Positions 16,451-33,420 of a DNA stretch of 47,946 nt are shown one piece after another (position 1 is the first letter of the stretch; each line of letters starts with the position of its first letter). The notes below the pieces were generated by a model, which worked only from the letters and a program-made list of their open reading frames with translations, was not told where the DNA came from and did not search any database. The position numbers and the translations under genes are program-made. The DNA comes from a virus. Taxonomy: Duplodnaviria > Heunggongvirae > Uroviricota > Caudoviricetes. The stretch lies in the IMG/VR virus record IMGVR_UViG_2681813146_000002; one strand, written 5' to 3'.

Positions 16451-16568
16451 CATAGAATTATATAATTATAGATTTATATAAAAAAGCGCTTTACGGGTGG
16501 GAAAAAATTTCCTAAGGTTATACCCGAAACCGAGCGATACCCGCCCTGGTTAAACCGGAGATAACCCG
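16451..16568 (+). promoter_or_regulatory. Conserved promoter/operator/leader cassette, copy A
   Basis: AT-rich palindrome, then TTTACG-N17-TAAGGT, then leader CCGAAACCGAGCGATACCCGCCCTGGTTAAACCGGAGATAACCCG before the ATG. Near-identical to copies at 25843 and 33034. Confidence 0.55.
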
Positions 16569-16949
16569 ATGAGCATGATTAAAATCCGCAAAGACGCTTT
16601 CCTTAAAATTCAAACTATCCTGGCTGGTTCTGTTGGCGTGATTTGCCGTTCTTCTTCAAGCCGCATCGATGACGGCTACGATGATGAGTATCGTGTGTCC
16701 TCGTGCGACGAGGCTTTAACCTGGCTGAAGGAGAATCAGGAACGTGCCCAGGTATATCTGGAAACAGAGAACGGCAATCAGATGTTGCGTATTAGCGGTC
16801 GTTATGGATTTGAAACTACATTCATGGCCTATTTTAATCAGGCTTACTTTGACAAGGAGTTGGCCTGGTACACTGATCGCATGAGCAAAAGCGAGCCAGC
16901 CCCGATTACACCGCCGAACAATAAACCATTTTTATTCCTCGTTAAGTAA
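16569..16949 (+). CDS. Hypothetical protein, cassette-driven accessory gene
   Basis: 126-aa ORF immediately after cassette copy A. Confidence 0.45.
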   Translation: MSMIKIRKDAFLKIQTILAGSVGVICRSSSSRIDDGYDDEYRVSSCDEALTWLKENQERAQVYLETENGNQMLRISGRYGFETTFMAYFNQAYFDKELAWYTDRMSKSEPAPITPPNNKPFLFLVK

Positions 16950-18566: not shown

Positions 18567-18594
18567 AGCGCCCAAATCGGGCGCTTTGTTTTAT
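18567..18594. terminator. Bidirectional terminator between convergent genes
   Basis: AGCGCCCAAATCGGGCGCT hairpin with flanking T/A runs. Confidence 0.55.
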
Positions 18595-19733
18595 GGTTTT
18601 GCACCTGCGGCCAGTTTATCCGCAGATATCTTTATCAGTTCCTGTAGTGTCCTGGCTGGTAGGTTTGCATCCAGTACGCTGAGTATGCTGTTGTGATCTG
18701 CCTGGTCGACTACTTTGCCTGTCGGTGGTAGTAGCTTGAGCTGAGGATTCAGGTTTTCGTCAAAGCTGATCAGTGCTCTGGCGTTTCTGAGCAGATCAAG
18801 AAGTAAGGCTGATATCACATTTTCCTGAGTCATTGCTGGCAGATTTAGCGCCGCTTTGGTTTTCCCTGTTGCCTTGTCAAACTCCTTGATTAGTTTCTTC
18901 CTGTAGTTCGGTTCCGTTAATAGCCGATTATGCTCTGTTGCCGCGCGGATAATCGTTTTTTCCTGGTACAGTCGTTTAGCCAGATCACGCTCGTACTGTG
19001 TTTTTAACACGCTGCTGATAGCGTTAAAGGCTTCAATGTAGGCCAGCTTGATATCTTTCACGCCTGGACCGTCGATACTCTCCATGAGCAAGGTAAATCC
19101 GTCTTTTGTCATGCGATAGATTGTTATTTCGCGGTCGCTTCCTTCCAACGGTCGTTGCTCTTTAAAGAAATGACGCGCCGCAGCTGTGCGAGGAATGCGT
19201 AACGCATCGATGGCCATAACGATGGAATTGTTTGTGGTGCTGAATGCTTGGGCAACATCGGCTGAGGTTGTGAGTGGCTCGTTATTGCACACCTTAATGT
19301 AAAACATCGGTTTGGCGTTGAGCGTATCGACAACCTCACGAGCATTGTTTGGCGAGACGGTTACGGTCGCGGCCGTTTGCGCGTTCTGGTTGAAGTAGCA
19401 GTCTTCCAGCCGTTCGAATACATCCCACGCCTGATCGGTTTCGAGCATTTTAGCGTGACGTGCAGCCCCGCGTTCGGTCCAGAGAATTAGGGAGCGGGCA
19501 TTTTTACCAACTAACCCGATTGTTTCGGGTCTGTTCTTGAACTCGCGTAATTCGTTTTTTTCAATTTTAAAGTAATGCTTTCCGGCTACGAATCGCGTCG
19601 TGTTGTTCAGAAAGTTATCAGAAATGTTTTTGATTTTTGTTCCGTATAACTGCGCCAGAAGTTCACTAGTGATAACGGGGATCTGGTTATGCAGGATAGG
19701 CTGTAGGGTGTTAACGGTCGGAAGCGTTTTCAT
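18591..19733 (-). CDS. Antirepressor, Rha-family N-terminal domain with KilAC-like C-terminal region
   Basis: 380 aa. N-terminal region resembles phage regulatory protein Rha by recollection. Confidence 0.55.
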   Translation of the reverse strand: MKTLPTVNTLQPILHNQIPVITSELLAQLYGTKIKNISDNFLNNTTRFVAGKHYFKIEKNELREFKNRPETIGLVGKNARSLILWTERGAARHAKMLETDQAWDVFERLEDCYFNQNAQTAATVTVSPNNAREVVDTLNAKPMFYIKVCNNEPLTTSADVAQAFSTTNNSIVMAIDALRIPRTAAARHFFKEQRPLEGSDREITIYRMTKDGFTLLMESIDGPGVKDIKLAYIEAFNAISSVLKTQYERDLAKRLYQEKTIIRAATEHNRLLTEPNYRKKLIKEFDKATGKTKAALNLPAMTQENVISALLLDLLRNARALISFDENLNPQLKLLPPTGKVVDQADHNSILSVLDANLPARTLQELIKISADKLAAGAKP

Positions 19734-19921
19734 TTTGCACCTCCCATAACTACTTTGGTTACGAGGGAGATTTTTGCGTCAGAAACAGCGTTATCGTTGC
19801 TGGCGATGCGCATAGCTTCGCGCTCGATGATTTCAGCCAGGCGGAATTTATCGGCGTATGAGGCTTTCTTGAGAAGGATCTTTACGAGGTTGACGTAATA
19901 GTCATGGGGTAGGTTTGTCAT
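19730..19921 (-). CDS. Small protein upstream of and coupled to the antirepressor
   Basis: Start taken at the internal ATG after GGAG; the longer ORF extends to 19957. Stop overlaps the antirepressor start. Confidence 0.35.
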   Translation of the reverse strand: MTNLPHDYYVNLVKILLKKASYADKFRLAEIIEREAMRIASNDNAVSDAKISLVTKVVMGGAK

Positions 19922-20215
19922 TGTGATATCTCCAGTATATGGAACTATCACCGCCATTCGAGGCTAATCAAATGGTGGTGAGCCGTACAGGGTTAGCCTT
20001 ACCGGACACAATGACGAACCGGCGCGGATTTCTCCGCCCCTGTACGACCCACCATAATTTGGGCGTAACAGTGCTCTACGCATAAAAAAACCGCTAACGC
20101 GGTATGCGCCATCGTGTTATTCAGGAGGCTAATCCCGGCCGTAGATTTTGCTACGGCTCGGAAAGTGTCCACCAATGGCGCATTTATGTCAATACGGCGG
20201 GATTTTAACAGAGAC

Positions 20216-20232: not shown

Positions 20233-20674
20233 TTATTGGTAGGCAGAAACAAAAAAACCGCCCTATTGAGGACGGTTCTTTCGTGCTGATCGGATTCGCG
20301 GTCCTTTCAGCATTACGTTGTTGTATAAACAACCACGCAAGCACAAGCAGCAAGTTAATTTTACCCAAAAGGTAATAATAGTCCACTATTATGCTTCATA
20401 AAATTGTGGTTCTTGTTGTGCCTGCAAACTCACAGATTGTGGGTAGGTTACTGATTTTGTGAAAATAAACGAGTTTTTTCGTTTAATTTCTTTCCTATAA
20501 CTAATCTTAAAATAATCGTAAAATACCTGTGGACCTTCCCGCCGATTCGCACCCGGGCACCGACTTTAGGGGAGGATTCTCCGTTGCCGTACATGCAAGC
20601 ACAAGCAGCCGTGCTTGCTCTCGCGTTGTTTTCGTCGGTGGGGATGCCGTGAAACGGCCTGTAAGGGCCATACA

Positions 20675-20797
20675 ATGAAAAAATACTGTATGTGTATTTT
20701 TATCGTTGTTACTGGAGCTTTGTTTACGCCACATGGGGAGGGTTGGAAGATTACTGATAACGCTCTGAATGTGACGATAAACATTAGCAGCAAGTAG
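20675..20797 (+). CDS. Small hydrophobic peptide (40 aa), candidate membrane toxin or moron peptide
   Basis: MKKYCMCIFIVVTGALFTPHGEGWKITDNALNVTINISSK after an AAGGG ribosome-binding site, followed at once by a strong terminator. No Hok motif. Confidence 0.3.
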   Translation: MKKYCMCIFIVVTGALFTPHGEGWKITDNALNVTINISSK

Positions 20798-20802
20798 CGA
20801 TT

Positions 20803-20826
20803 AGGCCCCTTCGGGGGCCTTTTTTA
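20803..20826 (+). terminator. Rho-independent terminator
   Basis: AGGCCCCTTCGGGGGCCT hairpin followed by TTTTTT. Confidence 0.65.
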
Positions 20827-21047: not shown

Positions 21048-21296
21048 TTACTTCTGGTTGTATTGAGCCTTGAGTAACTCAAAAGATTTTGTCAGCACTT
21101 CTTTCAATGACATATCCATTGAGCTGGCGAACGTTTTGTACTCGCGTTTAAATTCAGGGTCGACGTTAAACGCCATTTGTGCCCCACCTGATTTGGTTCT
21201 GGTCGGCGTTTCAGTCGGGTCGAAAACCTGCGGTTGTTCGATTGATGGCGGTACGCCTTTGCTGTTCTTTTTCGGTGGTTTTGATGGTGCGGCCAT
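21048..21296 (-). CDS. Centromere-binding partition protein, ParG-like (ribbon-helix-helix)
   Basis: 82 aa with a disordered basic N-terminus and a C-terminal RHH-like segment. Immediately downstream of the ParA-like gene. Confidence 0.5.
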   Translation of the reverse strand: MAAPSKPPKKNSKGVPPSIEQPQVFDPTETPTRTKSGGAQMAFNVDPEFKREYKTFASSMDMSLKEVLTKSFELLKAQYNQK

Positions 21297-21339
21297 GTGT
21301 ATCCCCTTTTATATAAATCTATAAAACTATAATTATATA

Positions 21340-21993: not shown

Positions 21994-22020
21994 TTGTCGA
22001 GACTCCATGTGTTTGGTTAT

Positions 22021-22118
22021 ATAATTCTATAAATCTATATTTATAGAACGAGGTAAGCATAACCAACTTTTTGGCGGATGAAAAGCGTTTTATATAATTA
22101 TATAAATCTATAATCATA
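22021..22118. repeat. AT-rich palindromic repeat units upstream of the ParA-like gene (candidate centromere/operator)
   Basis: Repeated TATAATTCTATAAATCTATATTTATAGA and TATATAATTATATAAATCTATAATCATATA units. A related unit lies at about 21303..21332 upstream of the ParG-like gene. Confidence 0.5.
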
Positions 22119-22143
22119 TAAGCGGGCGTTAGCCCGCTTGCAG

Positions 22144-25842: not shown

Positions 25843-25960
25843 AATCTATAAATATATAATTATATATTTATATAAAAAGTGCTTTACAGGTGGGAAAAAA
25901 TTTCCTAAGGTTATACCCGAAACCGAGCGATACCCGCCCTGGTTAAACCGGAGAAATCTG
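25843..25960 (+). promoter_or_regulatory. Conserved promoter/operator/leader cassette, copy B
   Basis: Same AT-rich palindrome, TTTACA-N17-TAAGGT and leader as copy A, ending at the ATG of the next gene. Confidence 0.55.
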
Positions 25961-27028
25961 ATGAATAAACAAGTAATTATTTCTGACTGGATCAACAACC
26001 CTAACAGCCTGTTAAGCACTGATACTGGCTACCTATTACGCCATGTTAATGGTCGTATGGTCAAAAGCGATGAGCACGAAACCTTTTTCTTTGTTGAAGA
26101 CGATGGGCGCATCTATGAGGATGGTTACTCTTATGAAGCCCAAACTGGTTGTATCCCTGCGGAGCTGGTGGACGTAACAGAAGATCTGCGCAAAGCATGG
26201 CTTGAACAGCAGCAGCGCGGAGATGATTACGTAAACACCTATCAGGAACGCCAGAACGCGCGTCTTGCCCGATATATTGCTCGTGCAGAAAAAGCCAGAA
26301 AAGAAGGTGCGGTAGCGCATAAGCGAGCGCATGACCTGTTGGATGTGATCCCGTTAGGCCAGCCGATTTTAGTTGACCATTATAGCGCGAAAGGCCATCG
26401 CCGCCGTTTGTCTAAAGCTGATGCGTTATTCAGAAAAGCGTTTGTTGAATGCGAAAGTAAAGCATCACACTACGAGAGCAAAGCCGCAGGTGTTGGTCGT
26501 AATGGAATTTCGTCTGATGATCCTGATGCGCTATTTAAGTTGCTTCGTAAGCTGCAAGGCTGCATGAAGTCACACGTCAAAATGAAGGCCGCAAATAAGG
26601 CCATTCGCAAATACAAAAAAGACCATTTACAGCAGCTTTCTGCATTAATCGATCTCAGGTTTACAGAAAGCGAAGCCAAAGAGTTACTGGCCGGAGATTT
26701 CTGTGGGCGCATCGGATTCCCTTCATACGCACTGAGCAACAATAACGCCGAAATCAAACGACTACAGAGCCGTATTAAGGAGCTTGAATCGGTCAAGTCT
26801 GTAACAGGAGCACAGCGCGAAGAATACGACGGCTTTTCTATGGAGATAGATCCAGAGGATAACCGCATCCTGTTTTATTTCCCTGGCAAACCAGAGGCAA
26901 ACATTCGTTCGCTGCTTAAATCACGCGCCTTTAAGTGGAGTCCAACCCGTAATGCATGGGTTCGCAAGATTACTCCAAACGCTCTGGCTGATGCCCGATA
27001 TCTGAAAGAATCGCTATTGAAAGCCTGA
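25961..27028 (+). CDS. Hypothetical protein, possibly DUF3560-containing
   Basis: 355 aa with motif GQPILVDHYSAKGHRRR. Cassette-driven. Confidence 0.4.
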   Translation: MNKQVIISDWINNPNSLLSTDTGYLLRHVNGRMVKSDEHETFFFVEDDGRIYEDGYSYEAQTGCIPAELVDVTEDLRKAWLEQQQRGDDYVNTYQERQNARLARYIARAEKARKEGAVAHKRAHDLLDVIPLGQPILVDHYSAKGHRRRLSKADALFRKAFVECESKASHYESKAAGVGRNGISSDDPDALFKLLRKLQGCMKSHVKMKAANKAIRKYKKDHLQQLSALIDLRFTESEAKELLAGDFCGRIGFPSYALSNNNAEIKRLQSRIKELESVKSVTGAQREEYDGFSMEIDPEDNRILFYFPGKPEANIRSLLKSRAFKWSPTRNAWVRKITPNALADARYLKESLLKA

Positions 27029-27105
27029 CAGTAAGCCTACGGCGGGATGTCTCCTGCCGTATATAGAATTATATATTTATATAAATGTATAAGGACGCCT
27101 CGACA

Positions 27106-27387
27106 ATGAAACGCAAAATTATTAACCCCCAAGATGTGATTAATTTCCTGACCGATCACCCATGTTCAAAAGTGGACGTAATCGCGGAGCACATTGGTGT
27201 GTCGCAGAACTCTATGCGTTGCAGACTGAGAAGCATGGTTGCCGAAGGACAGATAACAACCAGGAAAATAAATGGTTGCCTGTACTACTCCGCTAAACCG
27301 GAATTGCCATTTGGCATGAATCCTAACTCCATGTTGTTTAACACCTTATTAGCCAAAGTTAAGCCGTTGAGAGGGGCTGTGGCATGA
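27106..27387 (+). CDS. Small winged-helix-like DNA-binding protein
   Basis: Start taken at MKRKIINPQ after AAGGA; the longer ORF starts 27085. Preceded by an AT-rich palindrome at about 27061..27090. Confidence 0.4.
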   Translation: MKRKIINPQDVINFLTDHPCSKVDVIAEHIGVSQNSMRCRLRSMVAEGQITTRKINGCLYYSAKPELPFGMNPNSMLFNTLLAKVKPLRGAVA

Positions 27388-31774: not shown

Positions 31775-31898
31775 TACCGCCTGTGATTGGGTAAAGCCCA
31801 TCTACCTGACTGATCACGACATCGATGTTATGGACCGCCAGACAAAGAAAGATATTCTGGCTCATAACATGGCATGGGAAATCAACTGCCGAAAGTAA
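31719..31898 (+). CDS. Outer-membrane lipoprotein spanin (Rz1-like)
   Basis: Lipobox LIASC in MTMLIASCGS. Overlaps the Rz-like gene out of frame. Confidence 0.5.
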   Translation: MTMLIASCGSRGSVPVVVDTACDWVKPIYLTDHDIDVMDRQTKKDILAHNMAWEINCRK

Positions 31899-32067
31899 TA
31901 TATATTTCTATAATTATATAAATATATAGTTACAACATTCTATGCGCTTTTCTCATGGGCGCACGCATCAACCATGTTTGTCTGATATGCCGCCGCGCCC
32001 AAAAATCCTGAATTTATTGGCTGGGATTTTCGTGCGCGGCGCCACACCAGACAAACAAATCAAATAT

Positions 32068-32143
32068 GGCCCCTTAGCTCAGTGGTTAGAGCAGGCGACT
32101 CATAATCGCACGGTCATCGGTTCAAATCCGGTAGGGGCCACCA
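32068..32143 (+). tRNA. tRNA with anticodon CAT (Met, or Ile2 if lysidine-modified), CCA encoded
   Basis: Manual cloverleaf: acceptor GGCCCCT/AGGGGCC, D-arm GCTC..GAGC, anticodon loop CTCATAA, T-arm with TTCAAAT loop, discriminator A plus CCA. Confidence 0.8.
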
Positions 32144-32450
32144 ATTCACTCTCACACATAAAGATAAGCGCGGTGGAGTTACTTCTTCGTGCTCATCTTT
32201 ATGCGTGCCTGGTGCGCATTTCGGGCGAACGTGGGGCTAAGTTACAGGCAGGGCCTGTTATCCGCAAAGGGGTAAAAGCTGGAGCGGCACGGAACTGTAG
32301 CCGTGTTACCAAAACAGCGTTGTCGGGCGATATCCGGCACACAACAGGCAAGGGCATTAATCAGTCTGGTTAGTGCCCTTTTCGTTGTGTTTGCTGTAGA
32401 GCTGGCCAGCGTTATGACTGCCGGAGATAAGCGCCGGAGACACAACTAAC

Positions 32451-33038
32451 ATGGAGGCAATTGCATTGTTTAATCTGATTTATGCAGATCCCCCCTGGGA
32501 ATACAAAGACAAGTGTAAGGATGGGAATCGTGGCGCTGGTTTTAAGTATCCAACGATGAAAGCTGAGGATATTGCTCGTATTCCTGTCTGGCAGCTTGCT
32601 AATCCTGAATCGTGTTTGTTGGCCATGTGGTGGGTTCCGACTCAGCCAGAAGAAGCGTTGCTGGTGGTGAAAGCATGGGGATTCAGGCTGATGACCATGA
32701 AGGGCTTCACATGGAACAAATGTGGTAGCCGACAACCAGATAAGCTGGTGATGGGGATGGGGCATATGACTCGTGCAAACAGTGAAGATTGCTTGTTTGC
32801 GGTAAAAGGCAAACTGCCGACCCGCCTTGATGCGGGGATCATTCAGTCGTTTACATCGCCTCGTCTGGAGCATTCTCGGAAGCCTGATGTGGTTCGTGAC
32901 AAGCTGGTAAGGCTGTTAGGTGATGTTCCCCGTATTGAGCTGTTTGCTCGCGGTGATTTACCTGATGGCTGGCATGGCTGGGGCAACCAGTGCAATGGAG
33001 GTATCCAGTTGCATGATGCTCTCTGGCAAGTGGCATAG
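32451..33038 (+). CDS. MT-A70-family N6-adenine DNA methyltransferase
   Basis: DPPW catalytic motif in LIYADPPWEY. Size 195 aa. Confidence 0.65.
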   Translation: MEAIALFNLIYADPPWEYKDKCKDGNRGAGFKYPTMKAEDIARIPVWQLANPESCLLAMWWVPTQPEEALLVVKAWGFRLMTMKGFTWNKCGSRQPDKLVMGMGHMTRANSEDCLFAVKGKLPTRLDAGIIQSFTSPRLEHSRKPDVVRDKLVRLLGDVPRIELFARGDLPDGWHGWGNQCNGGIQLHDALWQVA

Positions 33039-33150
33039 AATTATATAATTATATATTTATATAAAAAGCGCTTTACAGGTGGGAAAAAATTTCCTATGGT
33101 TATACCCGAAACCGAGCGATACCCGCCCTGGTTAAACCGGAGATAACCCG
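33034..33150 (+). promoter_or_regulatory. Conserved promoter/operator/leader cassette, copy C
   Basis: Near-identical to copies A and B (TATGGT in place of TAAGGT). Begins at the methyltransferase stop codon. Confidence 0.55.
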
Positions 33151-33420
33151 ATGAAAGTACAAGACCGTGAAGTAGTAAAAAACCTCCTGCAATACCTGAC
33201 CTCAAAAAACCTGACGGGCAGCGTTGAGTTCCGTGAAGCGTTAAAACATTTCAACGTCACTACGGTTTATCGTTGGGAAAACCAACATTCTGAAAGACCG
33301 TATGTGGTGGATGTTTTTGCGCCTGATATTGAGTGCGGTTTTGAGCGCCATTCATTCAAAAAGAAACATTCCGCTGATGTTTTTTGTGAGGTTGTATGTG
33401 CGGCAGGAGATGATGAGTGA
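33151..33420 (+). CDS. Hypothetical protein, cassette-driven
   Basis: 89-aa ORF immediately after cassette copy C. Confidence 0.4.
   Translation: MKVQDREVVKNLLQYLTSKNLTGSVEFREALKHFNVTTVYRWENQHSERPYVVDVFAPDIECGFERHSFKKKHSADVFCEVVCAAGDDE

Follow-up and report, generated by a model that had tools for sequence, protein, structure and literature searches.

Why a single transfer RNA (tRNA) gene should stand in a long non-coding interval of a phage, set among large inverted repeats and followed by sequence of no evident function, is the question raised by positions 31899-32450 of IMG/VR virus record IMGVR_UViG_2681813146_000002 (Caudoviricetes; 47,946 nucleotides (nt), the whole of which is here called the window). 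An initial annotation, made from the sequence alone, had noticed a tRNA with a CAT anticodon, an imperfect nested palindrome upstream of it, and, between the tRNA and a terminator-like hairpin, ~240 nt that it could not explain and that it thought might be a co-transcribed small RNA. The interval lies between lysis genes (holins, GH108 endolysin, and spanins; last base 31898) and a gene for an MT-A70 family DNA methyltransferase (32451-33038, +; Pfam PF05063, 82.9 bits, and RefSeq annotation). The reading favored here, held at slightly better than even probability, is that 31899-32450 encodes a regulated tRNA precursor, in which the flanking hairpins serve processing or stability and the trailer has a second role as attenuating leader of the methyltransferase gene.

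The 611 bases around the locus are 99-100% identical to circular Escherichia coli plasmids of 46-50 kb and 98-99% identical to the Yersinia myophages vB_YpM_39, 41, and 44. A fully annotated relative, the 48.5-kb plasmid of the standard laboratory strain E. coli ATCC 25922 (corresponding locus 96.6% identical), encodes RepA, ParA, a RelE/ParE toxin pair, a lysis cassette, a terminase, and head and contractile-tail genes. Since the relatives are circular plasmids and myophages, and since the ATCC 25922 plasmid encodes replication, partition, and phage functions, the window is, by its relatives, a ~48-kb myovirus-type phage-plasmid. The pSLy3 group from the literature was considered as kin of the element and rejected, as it belongs to a different SSU5-related family. 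Literature searches on rydB, the Yersinia vB_YpM phages, and the P1 ban operon gave nothing on the RNAs of this element, and a metagenome scan returned E. coli-type variants only.

A tRNA-Ile2 Predicted to Read AUA

ARAGORN places a single tRNA with a canonical cloverleaf, a CAT anticodon, and an encoded CCA end at 32068-32143 (+), and the Rfam tRNA model scores it at 67 bits against a gathering score of 29; the cloverleaf first proposed is real. In RefSeq copies, the Prokaryotic Genome Annotation Pipeline (PGAP) names it tRNA-Ile. It is the orthologue of P1 trnI, annotated as tRNA-ile2 (CAT) and identical at 72/76 positions, and of E. coli K-12 ileX, annotated as tRNA-Ile(CAU) and identical at 68/76. 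The acceptor stem, D arm, and anticodon stem-loop are the same as in ileX, while the differences in the T stem are compensatory and the variable loop differs too. A tRNA-Met identity was rejected because the body matches tRNA-Ile2, and metT and metV, in the sequences used for comparison, differ from it in all stems. The base pairs C4-G69 and C5-G68 are determinants for TilS, and both are present in the acceptor stem (GGCCCCU/AGGGGCC). On account of its identity to ileX and P1 trnI, the tRNA is, as far as sequence tells, a lysidine-dependent tRNA-Ile2, which would read AUA once C34 is converted to lysidine.

As the tRNA is tRNA-Ile2 and not tRNA-Met, the codon relevant to the codon-usage comparison called for initially is AUA. 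When that comparison was run, AUA was found at 16.7 per 1000 codons in the window ORFs (open reading frames) and at 21.2 per 1000 in the head and tail genes, where it accounts for 31% of Ile codons. The annotated coding sequences of the ATCC 25922 plasmid gave 15.4 per 1000 overall and 21.1 in head and tail genes. Five E. coli K-12 genes gave 5.5 per 1000, and the genome-wide frequency in K-12 is similar. Compared with this small K-12 sample, the element uses AUA 3-4x as often, and its head and tail genes contain most of these codons. The structural genes of a tRNA-less Salmonella relative have AUA at 14.1 per 1000, which, for the two lineages compared, agrees with expectation. In itself the tRNA is ordinary, since a phage-plasmid tRNA-Ile2 is already known from P1, and the case is the textbook one of a phage supplying an AUA-reading tRNA-Ile2 for its AUA-rich late genes. 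What flanks it is not a tRNA: no second tRNA was found in the flanks within 31899-32450 (ARAGORN; Rfam to E up to 10), nor did any Rfam family match there at E up to 10.

A Constant Frame Around a Variable Slot

Diverged lysis-to-methyltransferase intervals occur in three Salmonella plasmids and one IMG/VR contig (L016), and the Salmonella copies are ~76% identical to the window across the whole of 31899-32450. Constant across the lineages are an AT-rich repeat array (the AT-box), a small hairpin, two large hairpins (H1 and M4), a core (M5), the terminator hairpin, and the leader that follows it. The variable part is the stretch between H1 and M4, which holds only the tRNA in the window type from E. 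coli, a module termed M3 in Salmonella Concord, M2 and M3 in Salmonella Weltevreden, and M2, M3, and the tRNA in L016. Compared in this way, the interval is one conserved modular non-coding unit, and the AT-boxes that bracket it at 31899 and 33034 support a single unit. The lysis cassettes of the E. coli and Salmonella elements are non-homologous, and both meet the conserved region exactly at the AT-box. Homologues of the MT-A70 protein (~78% amino-acid identity) are also present in ~40-kb prophages (L018-L086) that are without the entire upstream non-coding unit, so the unit is not simply carried along with the methyltransferase gene.

No start-codon ORF is kept across the four lineages in the flanks, where the substitutions look non-synonymous. 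The 143-aa (amino-acid) ORF at 31942-32373, doubted from the outset, runs through the tRNA and is absent from the RefSeq annotation, and can be set aside as spurious. The earlier view that the ~240 nt held no convincing ORF or second cloverleaf agrees with the absence of a second tRNA and of any ORF kept in relatives.

H1, the left border of the slot for the RNA cargo, is an 83-nt imperfect hairpin at 31975-32057 (+) and corresponds to the nested palindrome. Its two 34-nt arms (31975-32008 and 32024-32057) are 85% complementary and include the outer arms TGTTTGTCTG and CAGACAAACA and the inner GC-rich arms. As RNA it folds at -39.5 kcal/mol (z = -6.3 relative to shuffled sequences, with 0/200 shuffles equal) into ~30 pairs with internal loops, and among the 30 pairs predicted by RNAalifold, 4 show compensatory change. 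No U-tract follows, and H1 is therefore not a terminator. The palindrome had been presented as an upstream companion of the tRNA, and it is indeed present there; it is, however, not specific to the tRNA, as H1 is kept in all relatives, including those without the tRNA. Upstream of H1 lies the small 5' hairpin UGCGCUU…GGGCGCA (31943-31963, +; -8.9 kcal/mol, z = -2.9), at the position of which the relatives have another hairpin, UUGCCGA/UCGGCAA, as judged by eye from an alignment.

The right border of the slot is M4, a near-perfect 23-bp hairpin at 32153-32207 (+; z = -6.4) with 23 pairs and three single-nucleotide interruptions. RNase III sites are characterized by ~20 bp or more of near-continuous double-stranded RNA; M4 has this length, as does H1 with its ~30 pairs and internal loops. 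The basal stem of M4 is retained in the window, ATCC-type, Salmonella, and L016 copies despite their differing sequence: with the long apical inserts replaced by GAAA, it has 15 pairs, 4 of them compensatory and 0 broken. Many G·U pairs occur in the region of H1, M4, and the terminator, compatible with the + strand alone.

Beyond M4 lies the M5 core, ~125 conserved nt at 32213-32338 (+), in which a patch at 32216-32242 is hypervariable and small hairpins form at three places, hpA (32244-32258), hpB (32286-32307), and hpC (32322-32338). The core is ~93% identical to the Salmonella copies, every change in its stems keeps pairing (G·U to G-C or A-U type), and it has no Rfam match. The patch differs at 14/27 positions between the window and the ATCC 25922 plasmid, which are otherwise 97-99% identical, and it consists of four unrelated sequences in the four lineages. 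A global RNAalifold fold that pairs the core with the leader further downstream was not adopted, because it pairs via invariant columns only. The stretch once left unexplained resolves into recognizable conserved pieces, namely the 23-bp hairpin, the core with its patch, and a terminator-type motif, and it would be the leader of the methyltransferase gene as well.

M3, which is not present in the window, is a structured RNA of ~135 nt with a 7-bp acceptor-like closing stem followed by ACC(A). Five phage sequences (L016 1846-1982, L004 2147-2278, L005 2037-2163, L237 2501-2632, and L238 2501-2630) show 7 compensatory pairs. M3 also occurs in the early regions of Citrobacter phage phiNP and of Klebsiella phages, and it has no Rfam match.

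A Widespread Hairpin Motif at the End of the Unit

The terminator-like hairpin noted initially is confirmed by a terminator scan, which matches a stem at 32350-32380 followed by TTCGTTGTGT. The full structure, CCGGCACACAAC … UUUUCGUUGUG and then a U-rich tail, extends on the + strand from 32339 to about 32390-32392 (z = -7.1) and has six compensatory pairs within the element family. Intrinsic terminators combine a GC-rich stem-loop with a U-rich tract, and both are found at 32350-32380, the tract having four consecutive U only. The scan found no + strand terminator-like site between the lysis genes and 32350, in keeping with a single unit. Termination at the 32350-32380 hairpin would be partial.

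This hairpin (CCGGCACACAAC…UUCGUUGUG) recurs in its sequence context, CCGGCACACAAC … UUUUCGUUGUG, in phiNP and a Klebsiella phage, and the pattern CCGGCRCACAAC-N(25-86)-TYCGTTGTG is found in 85 IMG/VR stretches, including ~75 prophage contigs outside the family of the element. The consensus begins with a short hairpin, GCCGG-loop-CCGGC, and continues with ACACAAC AGG-N-AAGAGCAyUG, a variable apical insert of 13-70 nt, and CAGUGCUCUUUCCGUUGUG. Scored over 27 distinct sequences, with GAAA standing in for each insert, pairing holds in 94% of cells and compensatory change is seen at 7 pairs; 0/500 shuffles reach these values. A blastn search with one motif region returned 169 phage records, P1, P7, and SJ46 among them, and in many phages the motif lies directly before the Shine-Dalgarno sequence. 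Rfam gave nothing at gathering score in 12 motif loci and nothing at E up to 0.001 in another 12; for H1, M4, the core, and the terminator hairpin, Rfam 15 gave only chance-type microRNA matches on H1, far below gathering. The terminator-type hairpin is, on these comparisons, a covarying motif common to many enterobacterial phages and undescribed as far as Rfam 15 and the P1 record show. By the same sources, the frame of H1, M4, and core that accompanies this CACAAC…GUUGUG hairpin is likewise undescribed.

Two observations concern tRNA-like sequences near this motif. Some apical inserts (L295, L301, L308; L237 at ~2395-2425) carry the tRNA T-arm-like sequence GGTTCGATTCC, and in L312 and L297 tRNA genes lie ~210-225 nt downstream of the motif.

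The rydB-Like Leader of the Methyltransferase Gene

Between the terminator and the Shine-Dalgarno sequence of the methyltransferase gene lies a rydB-like domain (32384-32445, +), closed by pairing of GUUGUGUUU (32384-32392) with AGACACAAC (32437-32445), the 5' strand being shared with the terminator hairpin. It has both sequence blocks of chromosomal rydB (RF00118), AGAGCU..CCA and GAxUGCCGGAGAUAAGCGCCGG, in the same order and within a closing stem, though the stem is a different one. The Rfam rydB model gives 24.8 bits for the window and 29.1 bits for L005, both below the gathering score of 50, which chromosomal rydB genes reach in many Enterobacterales; the window copy is therefore termed rydB-like and is not filed as a member. 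In contrast to rydB, it sits in a 5' leader and has neither the own promoter nor the own terminator of a free-standing small RNA gene, and the sigma-70 scan found no promoter-like site at 32385-32450. The leader is nearly invariant among the relatives.

In a scan of genome contigs with the 19-mer TGCCGGAGATAAGCGCCGG, the matches were chromosomal rydB genes, and neither H1 nor the core had a relative among them. The 19-mer is conserved in rydB of >100 Enterobacterales species, from Pantoea, Erwinia, Rahnella, and Sodalis to Hafnia (L098-L217). These genes fall into two sequence classes and are sometimes present in two copies per genome (L155), and a phage-like variant in Pseudocitrobacter (L116) scores below the Rfam gathering score. 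As to the methyltransferase gene, its annotated ATG at 32451 overlaps the only Shine-Dalgarno-like sequence (GGAGG, 32453-32457), and the annotated start in the Salmonella relatives lies 11 nt further downstream, past GGAGG. Translation in the window may instead begin at an in-frame TTG, position 32466.

AT-Box Arrays

The unit opens with the AT-box (31899-31934, +), a candidate operator/promoter of four tandem 8-bp units (TATA-N4). This 36-bp AT-rich stretch follows the spanin stop codon and is invariant in the Salmonella and L016 relatives. The 20-mer TATAATTATATAWWTATATA derived from it, allowing <=3 mismatches, matches 8 clusters in the window, all intergenic, where chance would yield 0.03 (16451-16480, 21318-21339, 22018-22047, 22091-22120, 25845-25874, 27062-27091, 31899-31934, and 33034-33063). 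Five of the eight lie directly upstream of + strand units, namely ORF 16569, the DUF3560 gene at 25961, an ORF starting at ~27085-27106, the tRNA unit, and ORF 33151; the other three flank parA. The cluster at 33034-33063 (+) opens the following unit and so marks the end of the tRNA unit. A Salmonella plasmid has AT-box clusters at syntenic sites. The notion that the AT-box is a unique late promoter was dropped, because although a 28-mer was unique and a 14-mer uninformative, the looser 20-mer gave the 8 clusters.

Three of the arrays belong to near-identical modules of ~120 nt (16451-16572, 25847-25973, and 33034-33163), each composed of an AT-box and a ~90-nt leader that is identical in the three copies and ends in GGAGATAACCCGATG, which includes the start codon. 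These modules precede three unrelated genes, ORF 16569, the DUF3560 gene at 25961, and ORF 33151. One AT-box copy ends ~15 nt 5' of a Shine-Dalgarno sequence, so any promoter there must lie inside the box. We infer from this recurrence a shared regulated promoter/operator, and the eight clusters are candidate operator arrays of a global regulator. By analogy with the dispersed C1 operators of P1, the AT-box may be the operator of a master repressor. With an AT-box preceding it, the unit is probably expressed under regulation, on induction rather than simply in the lysogen.

Tandem 8-bp sites are typical of ribbon-helix-helix repressors. Just downstream of parA lies a gene for an 82-aa protein (21048-21296, -) with a basic, disordered-looking N-terminus and a C-terminus that is ribbon-helix-helix-like by eye; it has no Pfam hit. 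Binding of this protein to the AT-box arrays is possible.

A Proposed Regulated tRNA Precursor With an Attenuating Trailer

In the favored explanation, transcription from an AT-box promoter, or read-through from the lysis genes, would give a precursor from ~31940 to the terminator hairpin. RNase P would cut at 32068, and endonucleolytic cleavage and trimming to the encoded CCA would then release tRNA-Ile2, which would read the AUA codons so frequent in the head and tail genes. H1 and M4 would be the fixed borders of a slot in which relatives place other acceptor-stem-closed RNAs, either replacing the tRNA or beside it. They would most likely be elements of processing or stability, acting as RNase III-type sites or exonuclease blocks and guarding the upstream lysis mRNA and the downstream RNA after excision of the cargo. 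The 240 nt downstream would have two roles, one as the structured trailer of this precursor and the other as an attenuator-containing leader of the methyltransferase gene. The partial terminator would limit entry into the rydB-like leader, and read-through polymerases would reach the MT-A70 gene. The initial suggestion of a co-transcribed downstream RNA remains the most likely reading of this part, which is conserved, fits only the + strand by its G·U pairs, and ends in a terminator that covaries.

Several observations weigh against this explanation. The Salmonella relatives retain all flanking modules without the tRNA, so the flanks have a role independent of this particular tRNA, and the AUA comparison with the tRNA-less relative covers just two lineages. 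The sigma-70 scan calls no canonical promoter in the AT-box, so a promoter role for it is deduced. The U-tract of the terminator is short (UUUU CG UUGUGU), so termination may be weak or absent. Several pairs of H1 are broken in relatives, and the small hairpins of the core show one-sided changes only, with no double compensatory change. Neither the core (32213-32338, z = +0.63) nor the rydB-like domain (z = -0.1) is more stable than shuffled sequences; the z of -4.2 for the downstream 249 nt is owed to two hairpins, M4 and the terminator, and not to the core. The core being unremarkable in folding, the claim that it is functional rests on its conservation. The hypervariable patch finds no explanation in this model. 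No transcript data turned up, in searches that were not aimed at transcriptome studies of the element.

Alternative Explanations

The patch is the starting point for another explanation, which seems rather unlikely on balance. The downstream RNA of ~240 nt (M4, core, and terminator) would be a stable trans-acting regulatory RNA, such as a determinant of heteroimmunity or incompatibility or an antisense RNA directed at the host, with the patch as the site of target recognition and the tRNA merely sharing the promoter. Such an RNA would account for the small-RNA-like build, in which a 5' hairpin is followed by a conserved scaffold and a 3' terminator, and for a patch that diverges so strongly between plasmids otherwise ~97-99% identical and is unrelated among the four lineages. 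All other divergent patches outside the tail-fibre genes are, moreover, in or beside the C4/isrK immunity region. However, no complement of the patch with <=3 mismatches exists anywhere in the window, and when the window and the ATCC 25922 plasmid were scanned by duplex energy, no site stood out and no homologous target covaried with the patch. The 5' flank of the ryfA-like RNA and C4/isrK were not among the top matches of these scans, no dedicated test having been made for them. The patch and its surroundings also have no conserved local fold, and a U-tail of just four U speaks against a stable small RNA of this kind.

Of doubtful probability, too, is an RNA switch formed by the hairpins, which would control the entry of polymerases into the methyltransferase gene and the genes that follow it. 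For GUUGUGU (32384-32390) there are two possible partners, the upstream ACACAAC (32339-32345), which would complete the terminator hairpin, and the downstream ACACAAC (32439-32445), which would close the rydB-like domain; in a variant of this idea, processive antitermination in cis could be a function of H1 or the core. The layout of CACAAC, hairpin, GUUGUG, domain, and CACAAC is common to P1, L016/L005, phiNP, and a Klebsiella phage, with middle domains that vary (M3, M2, rydB-like, and STnc100-like), and the position of the motif directly before the Shine-Dalgarno sequence in many phages would suit a switch. The 3' arm of the terminator, UGCUCUUU, was counted in its favor as well, for a presumed resemblance to the boxA core. 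The alternative helix, though, competes with the lower terminator stem only, and the GC-rich upper stem and U-tract would be unaffected. Both helices are invariant within the family, so no covariation favors either. No ligand or protein factor was identified, and the putL and putR sites of HK022 show no similarity to the CACAAC motif (H1 and the core were not compared). The HK022 put RNAs were also tried as a model for the hairpin motif and rejected: the HK022 immunity region does not contain the motif, to which the put sequences look unrelated by eye.

A broader proposal, as tentative as the two preceding ones, treats the CACAAC…GUUGUG hairpin and its modules as undescribed, widespread, exchangeable structured-RNA cassettes in the operon leaders of enterobacterial phages. 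The P1 ban operon would be among them, and the modules would comprise the tRNA, M2, the tRNA-like M3, and two further domains, one rydB-like and one STnc100-like. The hairpin would conceivably be a dedicated switch for processing or termination. With no greater likelihood, the variable parts, that is, the apical inserts and the core patch, would be specificity or anti-defence RNAs and not spacers.

That the inverted repeats act as DNA, as protein-binding sites, cruciforms, or recombination borders for the exchange of cassettes, is improbable. Module content does switch exactly at H1, M4, and the CACAAC/GTTGTG hairpins, and the non-homologous lysis cassettes join exactly at the AT-box; CACAAC/GTTGTG, one mismatch from the integron core-site consensus, was also counted in favor. 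The numerous G·U pairs would, however, be A·C mismatches on the opposite strand, the one-sided changes turn G·U into G-C or A-U, no site-specific recombinase gene lies near the locus, and the P1 hairpin sits in transcribed leaders. Least credible is an origin of the flanks as junk, such as decayed tRNA genes, or a coding role for a small protein (for example a 48-aa ORF at 32303-32449), for although one RefSeq record annotates a hypothetical protein at 32303-32449 and either strand has long stretches free of stop codons, this part is without annotation in most RefSeq copies, the flanks give no tRNA-like match at E up to 10, no start-codon ORF is kept across the four lineages, and ~93% conservation of the core argues against junk.

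The P1 ban Operon and Other Known Systems

By layout and sequence motifs, the closest annotated analogue of the unit is the P1 ban operon (NC_005856.1, 68.6-72.7 kb), which comprises Pban/Op72, a dicF-like region, trnA, trnT, tciABC, trnI, and ban. Both are found in phage-plasmids, and in P1 the tRNA genes likewise lie in a long, mostly non-coding leader, there behind the C1-controlled Pban. The CACAAC…GUUG(U/C)G hairpin motif and an hpC-like hairpin are shared, the distance from trnI to the next gene is similar at ~290 nt (a 286-nt leader before ban), and a DNA methyltransferase gene, dmt, adjoins the operon. P1 differs in having three tRNAs and the protein genes tciABC within the operon, dmt upstream and the helicase gene ban downstream, a C1 operator instead of the AT-box, and no detectable homologue of H1, M4, or the M5 core. 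The ban leader contains two copies of the motif, at ~69057-69147 and ~70008-70087 (L319 ~1490-1580 and 2441-2520), both of which are unannotated in the P1 record.

The P1 module after the second motif copy resembles STnc100 (RF02076), as it begins with GGUGAAU… and has a CCGGG-loop-CCCGG hairpin ahead of the closing strand, and matches its model below threshold (33.4 bits vs 47). STnc100 has no match in the window (E up to 10) or in 12 motif loci (E up to 0.001). The E. coli tRNA-Ile2 genes ileX and ileY (anticodon k2CAU) also encode CCA; unlike the phage gene, ileX is a solitary chromosomal gene beside mug without flanking modules.

The arrangement has parallels elsewhere. Shiga-toxin (Stx) lambdoid phages carry the tRNA genes ileZ-argN-argO in their late leaders, and the T4 tRNA cluster is co-transcribed with the stable RNAs species 1 and 2. 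In both, rare-codon tRNAs are part of a polycistronic transcript with small stable RNAs and are freed by host RNases. These are other phages with other flanking RNAs, and the likeness drawn is one of arrangement. DicF, encoded in the dicB operon of the Qin prophage, is a small RNA freed from a polycistronic transcript by RNase III and RNase E. A dicF-like region is annotated in the ban leader by the P1 record, and DicF has no Rfam match in the window.

What may be new in the window is a fixed frame of large hairpins within which the RNA cargo differs between related phage-plasmids. At its end stands a covarying motif without an Rfam family, which occurs without annotation in P1, P7, and many prophages as well. 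Should processing or attenuation be directed by these elements, a common, overlooked layer of phage gene control would be at hand, and the elements would mark sites of small-RNA exchange among phages.

Divergent Patches Elsewhere in the Window

Besides the tail-fibre genes and the core patch, the window and the ATCC 25922 plasmid are hyperdivergent at 18955-19017, 19912-20154, and 20350-20556, and at no other sites. These patches are the C4/isrK region and a patch with 78 differences immediately 5' of a ryfA-like RNA, a distribution that suggests heteroimmune variants. The Rfam families C4 antisense RNA, isrK, and ryfA score above their gathering scores at window positions 19971-20059 (-), 20084-20157 (-), and 20529-20825 (+), respectively. 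An ORF6N/Ant-like gene (18591-19733, minus strand) is found downstream of C4 and isrK, an order that resembles the P1-type immI arrangement.

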